Part shown: positions 5,154 to 25,281 of the stretch, in pieces
Numbering within the stretch: the stretch's first letter is position 1
Layout of the letters: every line of letters starts with the position of its first letter
DNA from: a candidate division FCPU426 bacterium
GTDB taxonomy: Bacteria; Oederibacteriota; JAUXIB01
Reading direction: 5' to 3'
Length of the DNA stretch: 41,873 nt
Assembly (NCBI GenBank): GCA_030621225.1
Contig: JAUXIB010000003.1
Coordinates: 1 to 41,873, forward strand
The notes under the pieces: model-generated
What the model was told of the DNA's origin: nothing
What the model saw: only the letters and a program-made list of their open reading frames with translations
The model's database searches: none
Translations under genes and position numbers: made by a program

Positions 5154-7151
5154 ATGGATGAAGAAAAAGCAAAAAAAGAAATCGCTTCCCTGCGTGAGGA
5201 GATAGAGCGGCATAACAAGCGTTACTATCTTGACGCTGCTCCTGAGATCTCCGACCGCGATTATGACCGCCTAATGGATCGTTTGATCGCCCTTGAGCAG
5301 GAATACCCCGAGTTGATCACCCCTGATTCTCCTTCGCAACGCGTTGGCGGCGAGCCGCTCAAGAAATTCGCTAGCGTTGGGCACAAAGTGCCGATGATGA
5401 GTCTGGACAATACATATAACAGTGATGAACTGATTAAGTTTGACGAACGGGTAAAAAAGGGGCTTGGCGGAGAGGCTCCGGAATATATAGTGGAGTTGAA
5501 GTACGACGGGGTGGCGGTGGCGTTGAAATACGAGCAGGGTGTGTTGATACAGGGTAGCACTCGTGGCGATGGAAAAAAGGGAGATGATATCACTGCAAAC
5601 CTGCGTACCATCAAGAGTTTGCCCCTGCGGTTGACCAGGGAGGAGACGCTGGAAGTTCGCGGCGAGGTATATATTGACAAGAAGGATTTGGAGGAGATAA
5701 ATTTAGAACGGGACCAAAACGGCGAGCCGCTTTTCGCGAATCCAAGAAACGCCGCCGCTGGCTCGCTAAAGCTGTTGGATCCCGGGATTGTGGCGAAAAG
5801 ACCATTGAAGCTGTATATTTACACGTTGATATCAGATACGATCATGGTTGATAACCAGTATGATGCACTTGGTCACGTGAATAAGTTGGGCTTCCGTATA
5901 CAGTTAGAGTATCCCAAGCCACTTGATGATATCGGTCAGGTAACCACTTATTGCCGTAAAGATTTGGAAGGCGCGCGGGACACGTTCCCGTTCGAAGTAG
6001 ATGGTGCTGTTGTGAAGGTTAACTCATTTGCCCAACAGGAACGCCTTGGTGCTACCAGCAAGAGTCCCCGCTGGGCCATTTCTTATAAATTTGAGGTACA
6101 GCAGGTGCAGACGAGGCTCGAAAAGATAACACTACAAGTAGGGCGTACGGGTGCAATAACCCCTGTTGCGGAATTAGTGTCGCAGGATATTGCCGGAAGT
6201 ACAGTAAGCAGGGCCACCCTGCATAATGCGGACGAGATTGCTCGCAAGGATATTAGGGAAGGCGATGTTGTGACGATCGAGAAGGCTGGAGCGGTGATCC
6301 CCAAGGTAGTCGAGGTATTTGAGCCGTCCAAGAAACAGCGAGACGCAAACAGTAGGCCCTTTATTTTCCCCGAGAAGTGTCCCTCCTGTCATGGAGCGTT
6401 GACGCGGCCTGAAGGCGAGGTGGTGCATCGTTGTTTAAATATATCTTGTCCGGCCCAGTTCCTGAGGCGTTTGCAGCACTTTGTGGCGCGGGATGCCATG
6501 GATATCGAGGGGCTGGGACCGCAAACGCTGGAGCTTCTGGTGGAGCAGAGAATGGTTAATGATTTTTCGGATCTTTATAGTTTGGATCCGCTTAAGCTGG
6601 CCGAGTTGCCGCGCATGGGGGAAAAGTCTGCCGAGAATTTGAAGGAATCGTTGGCGCGTTCCAAGGGACATGGTATGTCGCGCTTGCTTTTCGCGCTGGG
6701 GCCCAGGCACGTGGGGCGTCAGACGGCGGAGTCGCTGGCGGAGCATTTTTCTTCTTTGGAGAAGCTGGCGCGCGCGGCGGAAGAGGAATTAGTCGAGGTG
6801 AACGATGTTGGTCCGGAAGTGGCGCAATCGTTGCTGAGTTTTTTTGCTCATGCGGATAATCAACTGATCATTGAGCGGCTTAAAGCGGCCGGTCTTTCGC
6901 TTAACGCGCCGCAACGGGTGGTCGGCAAGCTCTCGGGCAAGGTTTTCCTGTTTACCGGTGGTTTGGCCGACTATTCGCGTCCCCAGGCCGGAGAGAAGGT
7001 GAGGGCATTGGGCGGCCGGGTGGTGTCGGCGGTCAGCGCCAAGGTTGATTTCGTGGTGGCGGGGGAAGACCCGGGGAGTAAAGCCAAGAAAGCAGAGAAA
7101 CTCGGCCTAAAGATTATCAGTGAAGCCGAGTTTCTTCAGCTTATAAAGTAG
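5154..7151 (+). CDS. ligA: NAD-dependent DNA ligase
   Basis: ISDRDYD, ELKYDG adenylation motif, EVRGEV, NPRNAAAGSL, Cys4 zinc finger, HhH repeats, C-terminal BRCT. ATG 5154 preferred over TTG 5136, which lies in a repeat. Confidence 0.97.
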   Translation: MDEEKAKKEIASLREEIERHNKRYYLDAAPEISDRDYDRLMDRLIALEQEYPELITPDSPSQRVGGEPLKKFASVGHKVPMMSLDNTYNSDELIKFDERVKKGLGGEAPEYIVELKYDGVAVALKYEQGVLIQGSTRGDGKKGDDITANLRTIKSLPLRLTREETLEVRGEVYIDKKDLEEINLERDQNGEPLFANPRNAAAGSLKLLDPGIVAKRPLKLYIYTLISDTIMVDNQYDALGHVNKLGFRIQLEYPKPLDDIGQVTTYCRKDLEGARDTFPFEVDGAVVKVNSFAQQERLGATSKSPRWAISYKFEVQQVQTRLEKITLQVGRTGAITPVAELVSQDIAGSTVSRATLHNADEIARKDIREGDVVTIEKAGAVIPKVVEVFEPSKKQRDANSRPFIFPEKCPSCHGALTRPEGEVVHRCLNISCPAQFLRRLQHFVARDAMDIEGLGPQTLELLVEQRMVNDFSDLYSLDPLKLAELPRMGEKSAENLKESLARSKGHGMSRLLFALGPRHVGRQTAESLAEHFSSLEKLARAAEEELVEVNDVGPEVAQSLLSFFAHADNQLIIERLKAAGLSLNAPQRVVGKLSGKVFLFTGGLADYSRPQAGEKVRALGGRVVSAVSAKVDFVVAGEDPGSKAKKAEKLGLKIISEAEFLQLIK

Positions 7152-7299: not shown

Positions 7300-8289
7300 A
7301 TGAATATTATTCTCGAATTCGCAGGCTTGTTGGCGGTAATGACTTTTGCCGCCTGGTTACTCAGCATTGGCGCCGAGCGGCTCGCCGAGAAATACGGCGC
7401 TAATTTTACCGGTAGTATTGTGCTGGCGCTGATCACCACCCTGCCCGAATACTTGTTCGTTATTTTTGCGGCCTTAAAGGACAAATACGCGATGGCCATC
7501 GGCTCGGCGGTCGGTTCTTGCTCGTTGCTGATCACTTTTGGTTACGGTTCGATTATTTTGCTTTCCACTACCAATATCAGCCGCAAGCCGGTAAAAGAGA
7601 TAAAACTCTCAAAGGAGACGCGTTATGACGCCATCTATCTGGCGGTTACGGCGGTAATCGCCTTTATTCTGGCTTGGTGGGGGGACGGGTTCAGTATGCT
7701 GGATGGGATCATTCTCTGCGCGCTTTTTGGCGGCTATGTTTATCATATGGCGCGGGTCGCCTATCAATATCATTGCCAGCAGAAAGCCAGCGGACGGGTT
7801 AAGGTGCCGGGTTTACGGCGCGGCGTCGCTTATCTTGCTATGGGTGCGGTGATAATCTTTTTCCTGACGGAGCCGTTTGTGGATTCGATGATCAAGTTTT
7901 CGCTGCTGATCGGCGTCAGTCCGGTGACCATCGCTATTGTCATTGGACCGTTTGCCTCCGAGATGCCGGAAAAACTGACCGCCTATCTTACGGTCATCCG
8001 CGATGCGCGGCTGGCCGAGATATCTATCGCTAATTTTATCGGCTCCAAGGTCAACCACAACAGTCTGTTGCTCGGTACGCTGGCCCTGATCGCTGTTTTT
8101 CACGGCGGGATCGAAGTGAAGAACGTGCTCACCCCGTCCTTTGTCTTTATGACCGCGATTACCTTGTTGGCTACCATTAGTTTGGCGCGCCGCCGCCTCA
8201 GTCGTTGGCAGGGGGTTGTTTTTTTGTTGCTATATTTGGTGGTGGTCTACTTGGCCTTTCAGGAACCGGGACATCTGTCGGCCCATTGA
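7300..8289 (+). CDS. Ca2+:cation antiporter (CaCA / Na_Ca_ex) family membrane protein
   Basis: About 10 TM helices with two alpha-repeat-like motifs (ALITTLPEY...GSAVGS; PFASEMPEK...NFIGSKVNH). Confidence 0.8.
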   Translation: MNIILEFAGLLAVMTFAAWLLSIGAERLAEKYGANFTGSIVLALITTLPEYLFVIFAALKDKYAMAIGSAVGSCSLLITFGYGSIILLSTTNISRKPVKEIKLSKETRYDAIYLAVTAVIAFILAWWGDGFSMLDGIILCALFGGYVYHMARVAYQYHCQQKASGRVKVPGLRRGVAYLAMGAVIIFFLTEPFVDSMIKFSLLIGVSPVTIAIVIGPFASEMPEKLTAYLTVIRDARLAEISIANFIGSKVNHNSLLLGTLALIAVFHGGIEVKNVLTPSFVFMTAITLLATISLARRRLSRWQGVVFLLLYLVVVYLAFQEPGHLSAH

Positions 8290-10788: not shown

Positions 10789-12009
10789 GTGGAGTTGGAC
10801 TTTAGAAAAAGCATAATCTGTGTAATCTGTGTAATCTGTGGATTGACTGGTAATGCCAAGACCGTTAAGGATGAACTAAAGGAGCAGACGGCGTCCAAAT
10901 TGCCGGTCAAGCTGAGGATCAGCGAACTGCAGGTCAATCCCCAGACCACCTTCATCCTGCCCGACGGCAGCATTCGCATGAATGTGGAAGTGCTTAATCG
11001 CGGCGGTATATCTTTGGCGGCTACATCAAAATACAACTTTGTCAATAGTGACATAGACTATCGCATTAAATACTCGTATGTTTTCGGCAGAAACAACATC
11101 GGCCTGTCTGTTTTTGACAGTATAGATTTTGAGAAGGTTTTTTCCGATAGCCGTTTTATTGCCCGCAAGCGCGGCGGTGAAGGGGGATATTGGCGGCGTC
11201 TGGGCAGGTTTTACAGCATTGGCATGACGCTTTCAAGTGAGCAGCATTTCATGGTGCCGTTGGTGGAAGAGACTGTAGACTATGATAAGTCTACGCTCAA
11301 TAGCGGCACGACGCGTTTGGCTTATGATTCTCGCGACAATGGCAGCGACCCGCGCGCGGGTACTATGTACTGGGTGAGTTTCAAGCAGGCTACTGAGGAA
11401 CTGGACGGAGATTACCGTTACAACAAGGCCGAAATGGGACTGCGTAAATATTTCGGCTTGCGTTTTTTCGCCGCCGAAGATGCCGAGCCGAAAGAGAAGA
11501 AAAAGCGGAAAAGTAAGAAGAAAAAAAAGAATAAAGTGGCACCGGGAAAGAACCTGATCATTGCGCTGGAAGGTCTTTACGGAGCGGTTCCTTACAAGCG
11601 GCGGATCAGCGCCGAGCGTGAAGCGGTGCCTTATCTGGATCATTATCGTCTGGGCGGCTTTCGCAACTTGCGTGGTTACGCGGTAGACGAATTCATGGGG
11701 GAGGATGTTGTCAGTCAGCGGGTGGAGGTTCGTCTCTCCTACAAGGCCACGGAACCCGTGGGCAAGATTTGGGGGCTTTACTTTGACCGGATAGAGCTTG
11801 TTGGCAGCTATGACGTCGGGGTTATCGGCGAAAACGTCTATTGCCGTCGGGGTTACCTGCGGCAGGTCGCCCGCCAGGGGGTTGCCTATGGCTTTCGTTT
11901 CAAGCTTAATGTTAAACGGAAGATTAGTATGATACTATATTTGATGGAGGGGCGAGCTTTGCGGCAGAACAGGGACGGGGTGTTTTATCTTTCATATACT
12001 ATTTATTAG
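10789..12009 (+). CDS. Omp85-superfamily (Bac_surface_Ag-like) beta-barrel protein without obvious POTRA domains
   Basis: AYDSRDNGSDPRAG, YRLGGFRNLRGY (L6 VRGY-like motif), alternating aromatic C-terminal strand. GTG 10789 follows GAGGAGG; signal-peptide-like N-terminus. Confidence 0.65.
   Translation: MELDFRKSIICVICVICGLTGNAKTVKDELKEQTASKLPVKLRISELQVNPQTTFILPDGSIRMNVEVLNRGGISLAATSKYNFVNSDIDYRIKYSYVFGRNNIGLSVFDSIDFEKVFSDSRFIARKRGGEGGYWRRLGRFYSIGMTLSSEQHFMVPLVEETVDYDKSTLNSGTTRLAYDSRDNGSDPRAGTMYWVSFKQATEELDGDYRYNKAEMGLRKYFGLRFFAAEDAEPKEKKKRKSKKKKKNKVAPGKNLIIALEGLYGAVPYKRRISAEREAVPYLDHYRLGGFRNLRGYAVDEFMGEDVVSQRVEVRLSYKATEPVGKIWGLYFDRIELVGSYDVGVIGENVYCRRGYLRQVARQGVAYGFRFKLNVKRKISMILYLMEGRALRQNRDGVFYLSYTIY
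10814..10841 (+). repeat. 3 x 9-nt TAATCTGTG repeat inside CDS (ICVICVICG)
   Basis: taatctgtg taatctgtg taatctgtg g. Confidence 0.9.
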
Positions 12010-18080: not shown

Positions 18081-19993
18081 CATACCTCCCTTTTGTTTTA
18101 TTTGTTCTCTTTGTAGGGACTGTCCTATGGCTTTCTTTTTACTTTGCCAATAAAACCAAGAGCGCCAGCGGTTATTTTGCCGCAGGCGGAGAGATTCACT
18201 GGGCTGTAAACGGTATAGCTTTTGCCGGGGATTATCTTTCGGCCGCTTCCTTTCTGGGCATCTGCGGTATGATCGCGGTGGTCGGTTTCGATGGATTTCT
18301 CTATTCCATCGGCTATTTAGCGGGGTGGATCGTTGCTCTTTTTGTAGTCGCGGAGCCGTTGAAACGTATGGGCAAATTTACTTTTGCTGACGCGCTTGAC
18401 GCTAAATTTAATTCGAGGGGGATCAAGATCTTCGCGGCCATTAGTACGTTAGTCGTGTCGATCTTTTATCTGATTCCGCAGATGGTCGGGGCGGGTGTGT
18501 TAGTAACCCCACTACTGGGATTGCCGCACTATGTGGGGGTGATAATGGTTGGAGCGATAGTTATCACGATAGTAGCGACCGCCGGTATGACTTCAACTAC
18601 CTATGTTCAATTTCTTAAGGGGGCTCTTCTGATAGTGTTCTCTTTAATACTTTGTATTGCTCTTTTTGTTCGCGGCTTGAATACTGAGCCGGACCAAGGT
18701 GGTGCGGTCCCGTTTTATAAATACGCGACACTTGAGACGGTGAATCAGGCCGGTGAGGTTAAGCCGTTGGATGCTTCGTATCTCAAGCAGGGAGAGGTTG
18801 CTATTAAAGATAAGACCTTTATTAAGCTTGCTAAAGCTGGAGTTACAAGCTGGTGGTTAAAGGACATTAACTCGGATGGAGCGGTCGTACTTCAGGAGAC
18901 GCAGTCCGAGGTCGCGGTTGCCGGCGGGCAGATGCTGGTAAACGGCATGCCTAAGTCCAAGGAAAATCAGCTTCGTCAGGTGGGGAATCTTGAAAAGATC
19001 GAAGGCAAGAGTGGTAAGCAAGCCGAAACAGGAAGCGTGAGCCCTTTTGGTTTTCTGGCTAAATTTACCAATAAAGATACTATTGTCAAGCGGTGGGAGA
19101 AGCTTGCTTTCAAGGACGGCGGGGATGATGTGTCCGTTTATTATGCGGTGACTACCCCGGGGAATAAAATAATGCGGCCAGGGATTAAGTTCAAGGTAGA
19201 GGGGACGCTGGTGGAGCGTTTGGACTTCATTTCTTTGATGCTGGCCTTATTTTTTGGCACCGCGGCTTTGCCGCATATTCTGATCAGGTACTACACGGTG
19301 AAAACGCCTGCCTGTGCCAGGAAATCTACGATTATCGCGATTGCCGCGATAGGTTTCTTTTATGTGCTAACATTATTCATGGGGTTAGGCGCGATGGTCA
19401 GCGGCGTACTGAATGTGACCACGAGTAACATGTCGGCGCCGTTGTTGGCCAAGTCGTTCGGTACCTTCCTGTTCTCGATGATCTCAGCGATTGCCTTTGC
19501 CACGGTGCTGGGGACAGTGAGCGGACTTATTGTCGCTGCCTCCGGCGCTGTTGCCCATGACCTGATGGATCGTTATGCAGGGGTGATTAAGTCAGAACAT
19601 CAAAAGGTAGTCGCCGGTAAGATCGCGGCTGTAGTCGTAGGGGTTATCGCGATAGTCTTAGGGATCCTCTTTAAAGGGATGAATGTTTCATTCCTGGTTG
19701 GCTGGGCCTTTGCCGTAGCTGCTTCCGCTAATTTGCCCGGTATCCTTATGGTCTTGTTCTGGAAAAAGACCACGGCCAAAGGCATCGTGGCTTCGATCAT
19801 CGTTGGTATCGTTTCAGCGCTCGGCTTGATTTTGATATCGCCGAGTATGTACGTGCGTTATGGACTTGATCCGGATACCGCGCTGATCCCGTTTAGTAAT
19901 CCGGGGATCATTTCAATACCGTTAAGTTTTATAACGATAATAATCGTTTCGTTAATGACTCAGAAGAAACAAAGTTTAAAGACCGCTAGTTGA
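18077..19993 (+). CDS. actP: Cation/acetate symporter ActP-like (SSS family) with large soluble insertion
   Basis: GIAFAGDYLSAASFLG, YLIPQMVGAG, FGTAALPHILIRYYTV, AFATVLGTVSGL, AFAVAASANLP. Substrate is not certain. Confidence 0.85.
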   Translation: MTYLPFVLFVLFVGTVLWLSFYFANKTKSASGYFAAGGEIHWAVNGIAFAGDYLSAASFLGICGMIAVVGFDGFLYSIGYLAGWIVALFVVAEPLKRMGKFTFADALDAKFNSRGIKIFAAISTLVVSIFYLIPQMVGAGVLVTPLLGLPHYVGVIMVGAIVITIVATAGMTSTTYVQFLKGALLIVFSLILCIALFVRGLNTEPDQGGAVPFYKYATLETVNQAGEVKPLDASYLKQGEVAIKDKTFIKLAKAGVTSWWLKDINSDGAVVLQETQSEVAVAGGQMLVNGMPKSKENQLRQVGNLEKIEGKSGKQAETGSVSPFGFLAKFTNKDTIVKRWEKLAFKDGGDDVSVYYAVTTPGNKIMRPGIKFKVEGTLVERLDFISLMLALFFGTAALPHILIRYYTVKTPACARKSTIIAIAAIGFFYVLTLFMGLGAMVSGVLNVTTSNMSAPLLAKSFGTFLFSMISAIAFATVLGTVSGLIVAASGAVAHDLMDRYAGVIKSEHQKVVAGKIAAVVVGVIAIVLGILFKGMNVSFLVGWAFAVAASANLPGILMVLFWKKTTAKGIVASIIVGIVSALGLILISPSMYVRYGLDPDTALIPFSNPGIISIPLSFITIIIVSLMTQKKQSLKTAS

Positions 19994-20005
19994 TAGAACG
20001 GGGAG

Positions 20006-21148
20006 ATGATTATGCGACATAATAAGGTCCTGATTATCGCGGTTCTGGCTGGGTTGGTCATGTTGCCGGCTGCCGTGTTGCAGGCGGCGGACGTTGAAGA
20101 AGAGGCAACGGTTCTGACCAAGGTTCCTGTTGGTTTGAAACTATACGGTTTCATCAAAGCCGACGCGGTTTTTAACGATTCTGTCGGGGATACATTGATT
20201 ATGAATGCTCCCTGGGAAGGTGATGCCGTGGATGATAATGAATTTAATATCACGGCAAACTGGAGCAGGATCGGTTTCATATTTGACGGTACTCAGCTGG
20301 GAGAGTCGGGGAAGGTGACCGGTAAGATCGAGGCTGATTTCTGGGACAGCTCCGACTATGATCTAAGACTCAGGCAGGCTTTCCTGACCGTTAGCTATAC
20401 TAAGTGGTCGCTGCTGGCCGGGCAAACCTGGGACTTTTTCTCGCCGTTTGGGATCGGCAGCCTCAATGATGGTTACGGCTGGCACGCCGGTAATATCGGC
20501 AGTCGTCATCCGCAGGTGGTATTATCGGCGAATTGCGCCAAGAGTTCCGCGGGTAAAGTGACCCTCAAGCTCGGTGCGATAGATGCTCAAGATGACGCGC
20601 AGGAAACAAGCGGTTATCCGGTGTGCGGCGGACTGCTCGGCATCGAACGGATGGTAGGCGGCGTTTCCGTAAATGTTTATTACGCCGGTATTTTTGGCAC
20701 GGCCCAGAGTGATGGGGCTGAGCTGGAGATCTCGGCGCAGACCACCGGAATGAAGCTGAAACTTTGCCCATGGTTATCGATAAACGGCGAAGGTTACAGG
20801 GGCTATAAGCTGGAAGACTTTATGGCAGGCAGCAAGATCGGTGTTTCTGATGGTTCGGAAGTCCGCACCAGGGGCGGTTGGCTGGAAGGTGTGATAAAAC
20901 TCAGTGATAAGCTGTCGGCCACCGGCGGCGCCGGCATTGATGATGTATATCCTGATCGCCAAGCGTACATCGACGAGGACGGGAACAGGCTCTGGCATCA
21001 GAACGTAATGCACTACGCTAACTTAAAGTATAAAGCCGCGCAGAACCTGACCTATGGTCTAGAGCATCAGTGTTTTATTACGCAATATGCTGATGGGGTG
21101 GAAGGTAAAATCAATAGGATCCAGGGCTCGATGATTTATGGTTTCTAG
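20006..21148 (+). CDS. DcaP-like outer-membrane porin
   Basis: Signal peptide, LKLYGFIKADAVF, ANWSRIGF, GKIEADF, LRLRQAF, LLAGQTWDFF; C-terminal Phe. Confidence 0.75.
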   Translation: MIMRHNKVLIIAVLAGLVMLPAAVLQAADVEEEATVLTKVPVGLKLYGFIKADAVFNDSVGDTLIMNAPWEGDAVDDNEFNITANWSRIGFIFDGTQLGESGKVTGKIEADFWDSSDYDLRLRQAFLTVSYTKWSLLAGQTWDFFSPFGIGSLNDGYGWHAGNIGSRHPQVVLSANCAKSSAGKVTLKLGAIDAQDDAQETSGYPVCGGLLGIERMVGGVSVNVYYAGIFGTAQSDGAELEISAQTTGMKLKLCPWLSINGEGYRGYKLEDFMAGSKIGVSDGSEVRTRGGWLEGVIKLSDKLSATGGAGIDDVYPDRQAYIDEDGNRLWHQNVMHYANLKYKAAQNLTYGLEHQCFITQYADGVEGKINRIQGSMIYGF

Positions 21149-21151
21149 TCC

Positions 21152-21241
21152 TGTGTTGAGCTGAAAATGACCGCTTTAGGGTGATAGAATAAACTAATAA
21201 AAGATAAGTGGGTCGCGGGTTGAAGGTTAAAAGTTCCAAGT
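21152..21241 (+). repeat. 90-bp direct repeat, left copy
   Basis: TGTGTTGAGCTGAAAATGACCGCTTTAGGG...GGTTAAAAGTTCCAAGT; 89/90 identical to 22405-22494. Confidence 0.95.
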
Positions 21242-21381
21242 GAAAACGGAGGCACGGTGGTCAGGTGGTCATACCTTCGGTGGTAAAGTTGAAAGTATTT
21301 AAATGAGCCCTGGTCTTGTGCGAGAACGCAGTAGGGCTGATCGTTTTTCTCGTCGATAGCCATTCTAGAGGCAAGAAGAGG

Positions 21382-21771
21382 TTAACTATTCAGGAGTCCT
21401 TTTACGTGTTCCGCGAACTTTAAAATATCACGCAGAACAGAAGATCTGTCGAGAGATTCTTTTGTGATTTCTGAGGTATCATAACGGAGTTGAACGGCAA
21501 AATCAGTCAAATCCTTCAACGGTTGGAACCTATCGGGAACCTGCTCGCCATTTTCATCAAGTAAGGCGAAAAGTTCTCCGAGATCATGGGTCTTGGGATA
21601 CTCAATGCCGGATATGCTCAACCAGGCCTTAGCTGTTTTTTCAACCGCTTGCTGGGCATGAAACCCGAAAATTGCGTTGGTAAAAGTATCAACGTCATCC
21701 ATGCCCTTGAGAGCTTTCAAGTCATTGGCGGCTATGTCAAACATCGCCTGAGCGTGCTTAATGTCTTTCAT
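21382..21771 (-). CDS. HEPN domain protein (putative toxin)
   Basis: FHAQQAVEKTAKA, KTHDL and LRY motifs. ATG 21771 overlaps the MNT stop (TATGAAAGACATTAA), implying translational coupling. Confidence 0.88.
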   Translation of the reverse strand: MKDIKHAQAMFDIAANDLKALKGMDDVDTFTNAIFGFHAQQAVEKTAKAWLSISGIEYPKTHDLGELFALLDENGEQVPDRFQPLKDLTDFAVQLRYDTSEITKESLDRSSVLRDILKFAEHVKGLLNS

Positions 21772-22093
21772 ATAGCACTTTCCCTTTACGCAGACAACGA
21801 GCGATAATATGATTAACGGAACAACGCCATTTTTCAACTTCACTCGTGCTATAGACTAGGATATCTTTGGGGATACGGTAACTGGATAATGCTTTTCGGA
21901 TGCGACTCATTTCTTCGCGTCGACTGTTCTTCGGCCCAAACGTTTTTCGCTCTACGACGAGGAAGTCTATGTCCGAATCGACATTCGCGTCTCCGGAAGC
22001 GTGAGAACCGAAGAGGATGACCTGTTCCGGAGTAACCTCATCTACGATAGCTTTTACCATTTCATCAAGGACTTGATTTGTAACTTTAAGCAT
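21758..22093 (-). CDS. Minimal nucleotidyltransferase (MNT; putative antitoxin)
   Basis: ILFGSHASG..DSDIDFLVV (GS-x10-DxD), 111 aa, ends GKVLYE. Confidence 0.92.
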   Translation of the reverse strand: MLKVTNQVLDEMVKAIVDEVTPEQVILFGSHASGDANVDSDIDFLVVERKTFGPKNSRREEMSRIRKALSSYRIPKDILVYSTSEVEKWRCSVNHIIARCLRKGKVLYERH

Positions 22094-22404
22094 ATCTTAA
22101 TTATACGTCACGCAAGTTTGCGGTTCAATGTTTTATTCTGATACTTTAGAGTAATAGGGATCCTGCTTGAGCTGATCCAGTGATGTTCTTTTCATGGTTA
22201 AGCGAACATCATTGACTGCGATGTTTATTACCGGGGGCGGAAAATGGTTCCCACATATTTAGTCAGTGACTCAGTAGTGCCCCCGGTAACACGGGGCATG
22301 CAAGCTAAACGCTTGCTCTAATAGATACCGTTAATAACCAAGATGAGAACTATTCATTGCTCATCCTTAGTATATTTGCTACCTTAAGACTGACACATAG
22401 ACTT

Positions 22405-22494
22405 TGTGTTGAGCTGAAAATGACTGCTTTAGGGTGATAGAATAAACTAATAAAAGATAAGTGGGTCGCGGGTTGAAGGTTAAAAGTTCCAAGT
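22405..22494 (+). repeat. 90-bp direct repeat, right copy
   Basis: One C/T difference from 21152-21241. Confidence 0.95.
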
Positions 22495-22527
22495 TTGTCG
22501 TTGTAGGAGCGTGACAAGGATTCGAAA

Positions 22528-23799
22528 TTGGACCACATTAATATAAAAAAGGTGCTTGCGGCGATAAAGGAGCCTGACGCCTACGGTGGCAACCCCGAAT
22601 ACTGGCAGGAGGCGATGGAGGCGATGCCGCATGGCTTGTTGCCATTCCTGGATAAGGAAGTTTTGCCCGCGCGGGTGAAGGACGCTAAGCTTTCCGATGA
22701 TCACATCGAGCTGCTTGCCGCCGTGGCGGCGGAGGTGGAGCGGGACGCCGAGCTTAGCGCTTTCGCCTGGTATATGTACTGGCGCGTCTTCGTTGTGCCC
22801 GAGAAGGGCGTTCCCTGGGGCGCGCCGTCACTGCTGAAACGGCTGGGCAAGCAAGCGGGACTATTCTATCTGCTCTTGTCGCTTGAGTGGCCGCCGCGCT
22901 TGAAAGCTTACCACGAGAAGCTCGGCTACCCGCCCGCGGTTACCGACGATACGCTGGGGCAGATCCCTGGCTTTGAGGAGAACCACAAGCGTGGCCGGGG
23001 CGAGCTCGGCATCTACGAAAACCAGTTTCCCTGGCTGGCCACCTATATTTCCACGCCTTACGTCAAGCTGGGGCGTTTTGAGTATCAATTGCACCCCTAC
23101 GGCGGTGGAGTGAGCGTTTGGCGGCGCGAGCAGGACGGCGTTGTACTCGCCCTGGCCGAGGACGGCACAAGAGTGGGTGATGACGGTCTGCGTCTGGTGG
23201 GTGAGGAGGGCGGTTGGACGGCGAGCTTGAAGGAAACGGACGATGTGGTTACGGGTTACCCGGTGGATCCTTCAGGTTACTATGTAAAGAAGGAAGTGCG
23301 CCTGCCCCGCCCTGACTGGACGTCCTATCTCAAGGCGGGGGAGACGGTGCTCGACCTGCACATCCCCGCGGGAGGCAAGATGGACTGGGAGGGTATGGTA
23401 GCGAGCTTTAAGCAGGCGCCCGCTTTCTTCAAGAAGCACCACCCTGACCGTCCTTGGCAGGCGCTTATCGTCACCACTTGGTTCGCGGACCCGCGCCTGG
23501 CGCAGGTGTTGCCCGAGGATAGCAACCCGATGCTGTTGCAGCACGCTTCCTATCTCTACCCCAGTCGGCCCGACCCGGATTGTCTCTGGTTCATATTCCT
23601 TTGCCCGGTGAAGGGAGCGGACCCCGCCAAACTGCCTCGTGATACTTCCATCCAGCGCAAGCTGGCGGAGTTCCTGGAGCAGGGTAACACCTGGCACGGC
23701 GGCAGTTTCCTTATCCTGCCCGAGGATGTGACGGAGCCGAAGCTGGACGTCTACCGGAGGGGCTTTGAGAAGCTGCGGCAGGAACTGGGTGTTGGCTAG
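22528..23799 (+). CDS. GNAT-like acyltransferase-domain protein (DUF5596 / GNAT_C-like)
   Basis: KLGRFEYQ, VLDLHIPAGG and TWFADPRLAQVLPEDSN match the pattern I recall for this family. TTG start with AGGA SD. Confidence 0.7.
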   Translation: MDHINIKKVLAAIKEPDAYGGNPEYWQEAMEAMPHGLLPFLDKEVLPARVKDAKLSDDHIELLAAVAAEVERDAELSAFAWYMYWRVFVVPEKGVPWGAPSLLKRLGKQAGLFYLLLSLEWPPRLKAYHEKLGYPPAVTDDTLGQIPGFEENHKRGRGELGIYENQFPWLATYISTPYVKLGRFEYQLHPYGGGVSVWRREQDGVVLALAEDGTRVGDDGLRLVGEEGGWTASLKETDDVVTGYPVDPSGYYVKKEVRLPRPDWTSYLKAGETVLDLHIPAGGKMDWEGMVASFKQAPAFFKKHHPDRPWQALIVTTWFADPRLAQVLPEDSNPMLLQHASYLYPSRPDPDCLWFIFLCPVKGADPAKLPRDTSIQRKLAEFLEQGNTWHGGSFLILPEDVTEPKLDVYRRGFEKLRQELGVG

Positions 23800-23819
23800 T
23801 ATTTACAGAAATTTTGTTT

Positions 23820-23970
23820 CAGGTTGCAGGTTGAAGGTTCAAAGTTTCAAGTAGGGGCGGTTGTGGGAATTGTGCAGGATACCGGAAACAGGATACGGGG
23901 GGCTGGATGAGGAATTCAGAATTAAAAATTCAAAATTTGCGGCTAGATACTAGCTTTACGCTATACGCAC
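23820..23970. repeat. Composite heptamer array (GGTTGMA, GGATAC, AATTCA, TACGC blocks)
   Basis: ggttgca ggttgaa ggttcaa agtttca (same type as the 3' end of the 90-bp DR); ggatacc ggaaaca ggatacg ggggctggat. Confidence 0.75.
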
Positions 23971-23973
23971 CAA

Positions 23974-25281
23974 ATGCCTAGAAAAAAACTGAAACAACTG
24001 GTAGGCAGTCTCCAACTCCTGGTCAAGACGCGTCTCTGGGCGCAGATCCTTGCCGGGATGTTGTTGGGCATTACCACGGGGCTCTTGCTCTCCCCCTCGG
24101 GAGCGGCCCTGGTTAGCGAAGAGAACGCCTACGCTATCTCCGGCTGGTTAGCCCTGCCGGGTTACGTCTTCCTCGCCCTGGTAAAAATGGTGGTGATCCC
24201 GCTGATACTCTCCTCGATCATCCTCGGGCTGACATCCAGCGGCGACCCTGCATACCTCAAGCGAATCTCTCTGCGCATCTTCCCGTATTTTGCCGTGATG
24301 GCGACCACTGCTGTGGTCATCGGCATCAGCCTCTCCATGCTGATACAGCCCGGCAAGTATGTGGACAGCGAACTGATCAGCAGTGCGATGGGCGGAGTGA
24401 AGGCTGAAGCGGTTGCGGCGCCCGTGGGGGCAGCAGAATCTATTTCGCTCCCCGAACGCATCGTCTCGCTAATCCCCACCAACCCTCTCGGCGCGGCGCT
24501 TGAAGGCCAGATGCTCCAGGTGGTGATCTTTGCCATCCTGATGGGCATCGCCCTGGTAGGTATAGCGGAGACGCGTGCCAAGCCCCTGCTGGATATGCTT
24601 GACTCACTGCGCGAGGTATCTATGAAGGTAGTCAGCTGGGCGATGATGCTGGCGCCCTATGCTGTCTTTGGGCTTTTAAGCCAGGTGACAATAAAGGTGG
24701 GCTTAGCCACTCTGCTTGGCATGTCCGTCTATGTCGGCACTGTCCTGCTTGGCCTATTCATCGTGCTTTGTTGGTATCTGGTGATAGCGGCTGTCTTCGC
24801 CAAGCGCTCGCCCCTGGAGTTTTTGCGGGCCATTCGTGAGGTGCAACTGCTTGCTTTCTCTACCTCAAGTTCCGCGGCGGTGATGCCTCTTTCCATTAAG
24901 ACGGCGGAGGAGAAGTTGGGTATTAGGCCGGCCATCGCCCAGTTTATCGTGCCTCTGGGCGCTACCGTCAACATGGACGGTACCGCTTGTTACCAAGTGA
25001 TCGCGGCCGTATTTCTCACGCAGGTATTTGGCATCGAGCTTACCCTGGCCAGCCTGATCCTCTTGACGATCACCACGGTTGGTGCCTCCATCGGTACGCC
25101 CTCCGCGCCCGGCGTGGGCATCGTCATTCTCGCTACCATCCTCCAGACCATTGGTGTACCTCCCGGTGGCATCGCGCTGATAATCGGCGTTGACCGTATC
25201 CTGGACATGTCGCGTACTGCGGTAAACGTGACGGGGGACCTTGCCGCTTGCGCGGTGATGAATAAGTGGTTGAAGAAATGA
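23974..25281 (+). CDS. Dicarboxylate/amino acid:cation symporter (DAACS, GltP-like)
   Basis: AFSTSSSAAVMP, PLGATVNMDGT, GVDRILDMSRTAVNVTGD. Confidence 0.95.
   Translation: MPRKKLKQLVGSLQLLVKTRLWAQILAGMLLGITTGLLLSPSGAALVSEENAYAISGWLALPGYVFLALVKMVVIPLILSSIILGLTSSGDPAYLKRISLRIFPYFAVMATTAVVIGISLSMLIQPGKYVDSELISSAMGGVKAEAVAAPVGAAESISLPERIVSLIPTNPLGAALEGQMLQVVIFAILMGIALVGIAETRAKPLLDMLDSLREVSMKVVSWAMMLAPYAVFGLLSQVTIKVGLATLLGMSVYVGTVLLGLFIVLCWYLVIAAVFAKRSPLEFLRAIREVQLLAFSTSSSAAVMPLSIKTAEEKLGIRPAIAQFIVPLGATVNMDGTACYQVIAAVFLTQVFGIELTLASLILLTITTVGASIGTPSAPGVGIVILATILQTIGVPPGGIALIIGVDRILDMSRTAVNVTGDLAACAVMNKWLKK

Follow-up and report, generated by a model that had tools for sequence, protein, structure and literature searches.

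An MNT-HEPN toxin-antitoxin operon between 90-bp direct repeats at an insertion-prone locus of an uncultured bacterial genome

A toxin-antitoxin operon bracketed by long direct repeats

The window analyzed in this work (41,873 nucleotides, i.e., the entire contig C110, GenBank accession No. JAUXIB010000003.1) is part of a 266-contig, 2.6-Mb metagenome-assembled genome (NCBI assembly GCA_030621225.1), which is 89.6% complete. Between a porin-like gene and a gene encoding a GNAT-like acyltransferase (homologues of the former were annotated as Candidatus Omnitrophota in a homologue search), the window carries a putative toxin-antitoxin (TA) operon composed of a minimal nucleotidyltransferase (MNT) gene and a HEPN-domain gene, and this operon is enclosed by two 90-nt direct repeats (each hereafter called the 90-mer). 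The evidence presented below supports a real, recent, and locus-specific long duplication around the TA pair. The explanation that we favor, and to which we would give about an even chance, is an insertion with long target duplication that took place at a hot spot without a recombinase and was accomplished by host recombination or repair.

The two copies of the 90-mer are identical in 89 of 90 positions, the sole mismatch being C in the left and T in the right copy (Table 1), and such a match cannot have arisen by chance. They start 1253 nt apart and enclose 1163 bp, within which both genes lie on the minus strand. This arrangement had been described in an earlier note made from the letters of the DNA alone, and the coordinates, the one-base difference, and the domains of both proteins were confirmed, as was the beginning of the left repeat 3 nt past the stop codon of the porin gene (TAG, 21146–21148). 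The note had also judged the segment AT-rich by eye, and its GC content is indeed 44.1%, as against 52.2% for the genome, which places it among the lowest 1.8% of windows of the same size.

The search of the genome for the 90-mer, which the note had proposed, revealed two copies in the whole assembly. No match to it was found in 40 related genomes or in a collection of species-representative genomes, and neither the 90-mer nor the bracketed segment had a match in plasmid or phage collections.

The MNT and HEPN genes overlap by 17 nt (21758–21774) and are preceded by a strong promoter-like site of their own. The putative antitoxin contains the GS...DSDID motif, gives a weak score with the MntA model NF047752 (31.8 bits, cut-off 60), and matches the PADLOC candidate family PDC-S09 (E-value 2.5e-11). 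The operon resembles MNT-HEPN modules of the type VII HepT/MntA kind in its two overlapping genes, with the nucleotidyltransferase first and the HEPN protein second, in its own promoter and in the GS...DxD motif; it differs from them in the toxin, which belongs to PF05168 and not to DUF86/HepT. When the HEPN sequence was read by eye, no Rx4-6H RNase motif was found in it. The best homologue of the HEPN protein outside the genome is 58% identical, its best paralogue inside the genome 43%, and the TA pair overall shows 43–51% identity to its best paralogues. Among the JGI proteins, none was closer than 65% (GNAT), 40% (porin), and 56% (HEPN). The MNT-HEPN operon is an acquired one, intact and self-promoted, and its composition is foreign.

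The earlier note had treated the bracketed DNA as one clean cassette, and this part of its description had to be abandoned. The 1163 bp are composite: a 140-bp spacer is followed by the TA operon, about 100 bp of unassigned sequence, and the solo 3′ end of a multi-copy RAYT-like Y1-transposase element. Within the 140-bp spacer, a hairpin followed by a T-run can be seen by eye at about 21305–21350, which fails the criteria of the terminator scan; arrays of the GGTGGTC heptamer found in this spacer occur elsewhere in the genome as well.

The end of a RAYT-like transposase element inside the bracket

The tail of the element (...ACACATAG) terminates at 22400, 4 nt short of the right 90-mer. The same stretch recurs on at least six other contigs of the genome (C152, C165, C127, C207, C148, and C37) and in G001, which is the only genome of the same family among the species representatives. 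It includes a strong hairpin (22228–22289; fold z-score −5.1), and the search of the region 20900–24100 against Rfam gave no family match. Alignment of the copies showed that on contig C127 and on L020, a contig of the closest relative found, the element end sits 3′ of a transposase gene. Outside the hairpin loop, the copies of the window and L020 are about 94% identical, and these two have in common an 18-nt tail (CCTTAAGACTGACACATA) that is present in no other copy of the genome under study.

The transposase of L020 is an intact, 329-aa Y1 protein (PF01797). Its best-scoring model is the RAYT model NF047646, with 77 bits, just under the cut-off of 80, and the protein carries an extra DnaA-like helix-turn-helix (HTH) domain at its C-terminus. 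In the genome under study the transposase gene is present in many copies, which are 88–96% identical to each other and nearly every one of which ends a contig, while fragments of the element were found at 32 loci. This pattern makes it probable that the RAYT-like transposase is active. The left and right flanks of the element copies showed neither a mutual match nor a long target duplication; the assembly breaks at every full copy.

RAYTs are usually single-copy genes. The element within the bracket is like RAYT and IS200/IS605 systems in being the hairpin-bearing non-coding end of a Y1-transposase element, and it is unlike them in that the gene is multi-copy here and bears the additional DnaA-like HTH, and in that there is no transposase gene at the locus in the window.

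Loci of the element or its transposase include C152 (1067–1324), C165 (6975–7227), C127 (16931–17573), C131, C241, C118, and C228. At some 3′ ends, a hairpin module of about 150 bp is placed within a promoter-like unit (TTGACG-17-TATCTT) directed at the downstream gene. On contig C202 (locus L013), the 5′ region of the RAYT-like gene is present twice, as 131-bp copies that contain the start codon (6008–6138 and 7612–7743), and between them lies a gene for a DUF1016/YhcG PD-(D/E)XK nuclease.

A synteny breakpoint with changing occupants

The closest relative found was NCBI assembly GCA_030621565.1, of which contigs L020 and L022 were compared with the window. The GNAT ortholog on L020 shows 95% amino-acid and 94% nucleotide identity, and directly ahead of it are the intact RAYT-like transposase gene and the element end. 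The statement of the earlier note that there is no recombinase therefore holds only for the bracketed DNA itself, inside which none was found, as an intact transposase gene occupies the same position in the nearest relative. In comparison with L020, the window has 119 additional bp, made up of ACTT, the right 90-mer, and 25 nt, and the corresponding gap in L020 begins exactly where the transposase element ends.

The SSF transporter and porin genes are located on the other contig, L022, so that porin and GNAT are not neighbors in this relative. The two genes show 80% identity to those of the window as far as the porin stop codon, where the identity ends; beyond it there are a dispersed repeat and then a glycosyltransferase gene, which in the genome under study lies on contig C205. 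In L001, representing a different genus of the same family, the GNAT ortholog is 81% identical, and a DUF6290-ParE TA pair (L001, 5455–5934) without long repeats is located directly upstream of it. More distant relatives, at 58% identity, have ordinary genes in this slot. The slot ahead of GNAT thus harbors three selfish occupants in three related genomes: MNT-HEPN in the window, the RAYT-like transposase in L020, and DUF6290-ParE in L001. Since porin and GNAT are apart in a close relative and the occupants of the slot differ, the site is an insertion-prone synteny breakpoint, i.e., a hot spot.

An outgroup motif (GTGCGTAACAAGAG) resembles the sequence GAGCGTGACAAGGA, which lies 3′ of the right 90-mer in the window, at a similar distance from the gene. 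This similarity is a weak sign of an ancestral origin of the 25 nt and of a loss of 119 bp from L020 beside the element end.

Two other observations were made in this comparison. Divergence from the same relative is mosaic (window 18986–23874 versus L022 and L020): identity amounts to 80% in the SSF-porin part, 94% in GNAT, and 87% and 97% in two genes of C205, a pattern that suggests either exchange by recombination among related populations or constraint that is very uneven. The dispersed intergenic repeat of about 140 bp, which begins right at the porin stop in L022 (2194–2340), occurs in dozens of copies on more than 50 contigs of the genome under study (78–87% identity), and a 36-nt match to it was found in the window at 10807–10842.

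Relation to insertions with long target duplication

The recombinase-free spread of TA and other small selfish or defence modules has long been an open point. Insertions leaving scars in the form of long target duplications were reported for restriction-modification genes in 2000 (Nobusato et al., Gene 259:99) and in an extended survey in 2010 (Furuta, Abe, and Kobayashi; PMC2853133), and have never been explained. In the published class, genome-unique repeats longer than 30 bp (46–423 bp), often spanning the starts or stops of genes, enclose a module smaller than 20 kb without mobility genes; most of the species concerned are naturally competent, the mechanism is unknown, and a genome with the empty site and a single copy of the repeat constitutes the defining test (PMC2853133).

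The locus in the window has the same anatomy: a small selfish module of atypical GC content (1163 bp) without an integrase or transposase gene is flanked by repeats of 90 nt which are placed at gene ends or starts and are unique, with two copies in 2.6 Mb and none in the 40 relatives. It differs from the class in its MNT-HEPN cargo, in its uncultured Omnitrophota host, and in the Y1-transposase fragment within the insert; there is no mobility gene in the bracket, but there is the 205-bp RAYT-like solo end. In the published cases an empty-site genome was compared, and the locus in the window is a candidate member of the class by its anatomy. In the literature accessible to the search, no paper was found that describes this pattern for MNT-HEPN or other classical TA modules.

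A second case on contig C136

The genome was screened for local direct repeats with two copies genome-wide, which yielded 11 pairs. One of them, on contig C136, consists of 89-nt copies (90% identical, nine mismatches) around 1383 bp that hold two genes, one for an MNT protein with a winged HTH and one for a HEPN protein, together with a promoter and a terminator hairpin. The 3′ end of a convergent gene for an HTH-EIIA regulator forms the right copy. The left copy encodes the last codons of the toxin gene of an older MNT/HepT-like pair, and since it completes this older gene, the left copy is target DNA. In G001, the end of the HTH-EIIA gene is single-copy, a convergent TPR gene follows at a distance of 62 bp, and a TA pair is absent there, so an empty-site relative is available for C136 at the protein level. 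At the three informative residues in which the copies differ, the gene-attached copy keeps the state of G001 in this protein-level comparison; synonymous and non-synonymous differences affect four codons each. Judged from these comparisons, C136 represents an insertion that duplicated 89 bp of its target, and its structure cannot be an assembly error. Contig C136 (locus L010) has, in all, two MNT/HEPN-type pairs stacked at the 3′ end of the HTH-EIIA gene (260–2536).

The cassettes of C136 and C110 have no DNA and no ends in common, and their proteins are only remotely similar, so that shared element ends play no part. Of the nine MNT-HEPN pairs of the genome, two have repeats of 14 nt or more on their flanks (within 900 bp), and the other seven have none. 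On C136, 13 nt from the left repeat, 32 nt are identical to the left edge of the RAYT copy of contig C176; about 30 of them fall outside the part common to all element copies. Together with the window, this means that each repeat-bracketed TA insert has an element fragment at one edge. Overall, such fragments are present inside three of the 11 repeat-bracketed segments, versus about 0.3 expected by length.

The genome offers two independent cases with TA cargo, one (C136) with an outgroup comparator and the other (C110) at a slot with three occupants. As a testable lead, both inserts have at their edge pieces of a Y1-transposase element that looks active.

A further array of selfish genes delimited by repeats may exist on contig C217 (locus L012; 2245–13324), where repeated non-coding segments of 70–240 bp alternate with a Fic/Doc gene, a Gp49/HI1420-type TA pair, and three paralogues of about 490 aa.

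Site-specific recombination and transposition

Several established routes of mobility were considered and rejected. No match to the tyrosine recombinase family PF00589, XerC and XerD included, was found in the genome (89.6% complete), whereas all 14 control genomes were positive; the single serine recombinase is encoded on an unrelated contig. The 90-mer is unstructured, with minimum free energies of −1.7 and −1.0 kcal/mol and a z-score of +1.2 on both strands, and is therefore not an attC site. Integron cassettes share with the bracketed segment a small, promoter-independent format, frequent TA content, an occasionally reversed orientation, and a position between similar repeats; what separates the locus from them is the lack of an attC-like imperfect palindrome, of IntI, and of an array, the repeat being present in two copies only.

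Neither tRNA nor tmRNA was found in the region 19500–24500, and the 90-mer is non-coding, which disposes of a tRNA, tmRNA, or gene 3′ end as the target. Integrase-less elements with att-type repeats, e.g., the cis-mobilizable elements of streptococci or islands in tRNA or gene 3′ ends, have att sites that are served by the integrase of a related element. The window locus is like them in having long direct repeats around DNA without its own recombination gene, and unlike them in that the genome encodes no tyrosine integrase and the 90-mer corresponds to no tRNA and no gene end.

A classical transposon or insertion sequence was rejected as well: no inverted termini were found, there is no transposase gene inside, and a duplication of 90 bp is, as the earlier note had argued, well beyond the length of a transposon target duplication. 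Nor is the 90-mer the end of a repeated insertion sequence, since the assembly contains it just twice and the collections searched gave no match.

The earlier note had further recognized a heptamer array (GGTTGAA GGTTAAA AGTTCCA) at the 3′ end of the 90-mer and had raised a possible link of such arrays to the insertion of cargo. The array is present and shows 87% identity over 31 nt to the one located after the GNAT gene. The proposed link did not survive, given that period-7 arrays of at least 3.5 copies number 707 in the genome, versus none in a shuffled genome, and that the repeat of C136 has no array. Arrays of this particular motif are found four times in the genome, two of them being the copies of the 90-mer. 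Such a texture is ordinary for the spacers of this organism, and the heptamer tail does not signal the insertion of cargo.

Possible origin of the bracketed operon

From the arrangement described above we infer how the insertion came about, in which direction and order the events took place, and that addiction stabilizes the result, as follows. About 1.16 kb of DNA, comprising the MNT-HEPN operon with the 140-bp spacer on one side and the fragment of the RAYT-like element on the other, would have entered the non-coding spacer between porin and GNAT, and 90 bp of this spacer, probably with the GNAT promoter, would have been left on both sides. No site-specific recombinase would be involved. The joint would be made by host recombination or repair, either through exchange with sister or incoming DNA, in an unequal or staggered fashion, or through re-integration of a circle by way of the 90-bp homology. 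The presence of ComEC in the genome makes DNA uptake plausible. Afterwards, RecA-type recombination between the copies could excise the pair, in line with the suggestion of the earlier note that it would delete the TA genes, and the pair would presumably penalize the cells that lose it.

Several observations weigh against this explanation. That the 90-mer was the target is something we infer, since the closest relative has no 90-mer at either the porin (L022) or the GNAT (L020) flank and keeps these genes at different loci. An empty site, i.e., porin and GNAT joined by a single 90-mer, was not found on these two contigs, and exact-protein look-ups gave no match. The right part of the insert (about 205 bp) matches DNA that stands directly ahead of GNAT in L020, including the identical 18-nt tail. 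If these 205 bp are shared by descent, the fragment would have been resident before the duplication and the history would have had several steps; the single mismatch between the 90-mers, set against the 6% divergence of the lineages, would then call for gene conversion or a very recent rearrangement. If the element end represents a second hit at the hot spot instead, a single insertion explains the window. It should be added that the published class excludes inserts with other mobile-element sequence (PMC2853133), and that with one single-nucleotide polymorphism (SNP) between the repeats a mixture of the empty site and a circle or tandem array gives an identical assembly graph at k ≤ 69.

The last point leads to an assembly artefact or a population mixture, in which an empty porin-90-mer-GNAT site and a separate 1253-bp circle or tandem array were threaded into one path. 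The source is, after all, a metagenome-assembled genome in 266 contigs, and the SNP lies 21 nt from the left edge, leaving an identical stretch of 69 nt, so that by our reasoning both graphs are equal at k ≤ 69. We nevertheless regard this as very improbable: the words or reads with which common assemblers finish exceed 69 nt and would resolve the node; the SNP was retained and not collapsed; and C136 has the same architecture with nine differences, which is impossible as a threading error. If, on the other hand, variants with and without the insert were confirmed in the population, the locus would be a natural system in which to study how an uncultured phylum gains and loses addiction modules without a recombinase.

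Integration of a circular cassette, which the earlier note had preferred, would consist in a single crossover of the Campbell type between a 90-mer carried by the cassette and a resident 90-mer, and the cassette could leave in the same way. Near-identical direct repeats are exactly what is expected when a circle enters the chromosome by a single crossover, and host RecA would suffice for this, which fits the absence of integrases. This possible route gained no support from the searches, as neither a second copy of the cassette nor an empty site nor a circle junction was found and the cassette with its 90-mer occurs nowhere else in any of the collections searched. It also leaves unexplained how the circle came by a 90-mer in the first place; resident DNA of L020 matches part of the supposed circle, and on C136 the outer copy is target DNA completing an older gene and not a homologue borne by the element. 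We consider this explanation unlikely.

A somewhat more doubtful proposal is that the RAYT-like Y1 (HUH) element gave rise to the structure as a by-product, with nicking at its end having produced the duplication here and the adjacent 119-bp deletion in the relative, or with one-ended mobilization having affected the adjacent TA genes. It would account for the tail of the element lying 4 nt from the right 90-mer, for the 119-bp difference of L020 starting at that very end, for the 32-nt match on C136 close to the left repeat, and for the excess of fragments in the bracketed segments, and the transposase, being multi-copy, 88–96% identical, and disruptive to contigs, is probably active as far as its sequences tell. 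Y1 transposases (IS200/IS605, RAYT), however, move single-stranded DNA and are not known for target duplication. Moreover, the left and right flanks of the element copies do not match, the other end of the element is absent from both cassettes, the match on C136 includes about 30 nt beyond the element proper, the numbers are small, and selfish DNA is prone to gather in the same permissive spacers. In a more specific form, which we hold to be still less probable, ends of RAYT-like elements would mark one boundary of the moved DNA: a nick at the element's own end would release adjacent TA operons or prime their copying, and host repair would paste the product, leaving target duplications of about 90 bp. 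If this one-ended reading were true, it would amount to a new, RAYT-type capture of cargo and to a mechanism for insertion with long target duplication. For the present, recombinase-free insertion by host recombination or repair is the explanation that we retain for the window.

Neighboring genes and other features of the locus

The positions of the features described in this work are collected in Table 1. The porin-like protein itself gave no Pfam match, and its Omnitrophota homologues have a DcaP-type domain (PF19577). Each copy of the 90-mer includes a promoter-like site, and the right one is directed at the GNAT gene; the 90-mer may be the promoter and leader of this gene.

Table 1. Features of the porin-GNAT region of the window (positions in nucleotides of contig C110).
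Feature	Position	Strand	Remarks
Porin-like outer-membrane gene	20006–21148	+	Left neighbor of the site; ORF call
90-mer, left copy	21152–21241	none	C at 21172; non-coding; self-comparison of the window
Promoter-like site in left 90-mer	21161–21190	+	CTGAAA-18-TG-TAGAAT, extended −10
140-bp spacer, left repeat to HEPN stop	21242–21381	none	GGTGGTC-type heptamers; unique in the genome
HEPN-domain putative toxin, 130 aa	21382–21774	−	PF05168, E-value 4e-16
MNT putative antitoxin, 111 aa	21758–22093	−	PF01909, E-value 1.6e-10; PF18765
Promoter-like site of the MNT-HEPN operon	22100–22128	−	TTGAAC-17-TATAAT, 10/12 matches
Solo 3′ end of multi-copy RAYT-like Y1-transposase element	22197–22401	+	Recurs elsewhere; copies aligned
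119 bp extra in comparison with L020	22401–22519	none	ACTT, right 90-mer, and 25 nt; alignment, blastn
90-mer, right copy	22405–22494	none	T at 22425; self-comparison of the window
Promoter-like site in right 90-mer	22414–22443	+	Same motif as in the left copy; directed at the GNAT gene
GNAT-like acyltransferase (NAT_N + GNAT_C)	22528–23799	+	Right neighbor; PF18164, E-value 5e-25; PF18082, E-value 5e-13
Heptamer array after the GNAT gene	23822–23852	+	Resembles the 3′ end of the 90-mer

The start of the GNAT gene differs between the window and its closest relative, the ATG codon of L020 being ATA here (22543–22545), and the longest open frame in the window begins at a TTG codon (22528), 15 nt upstream of the ATA codon.

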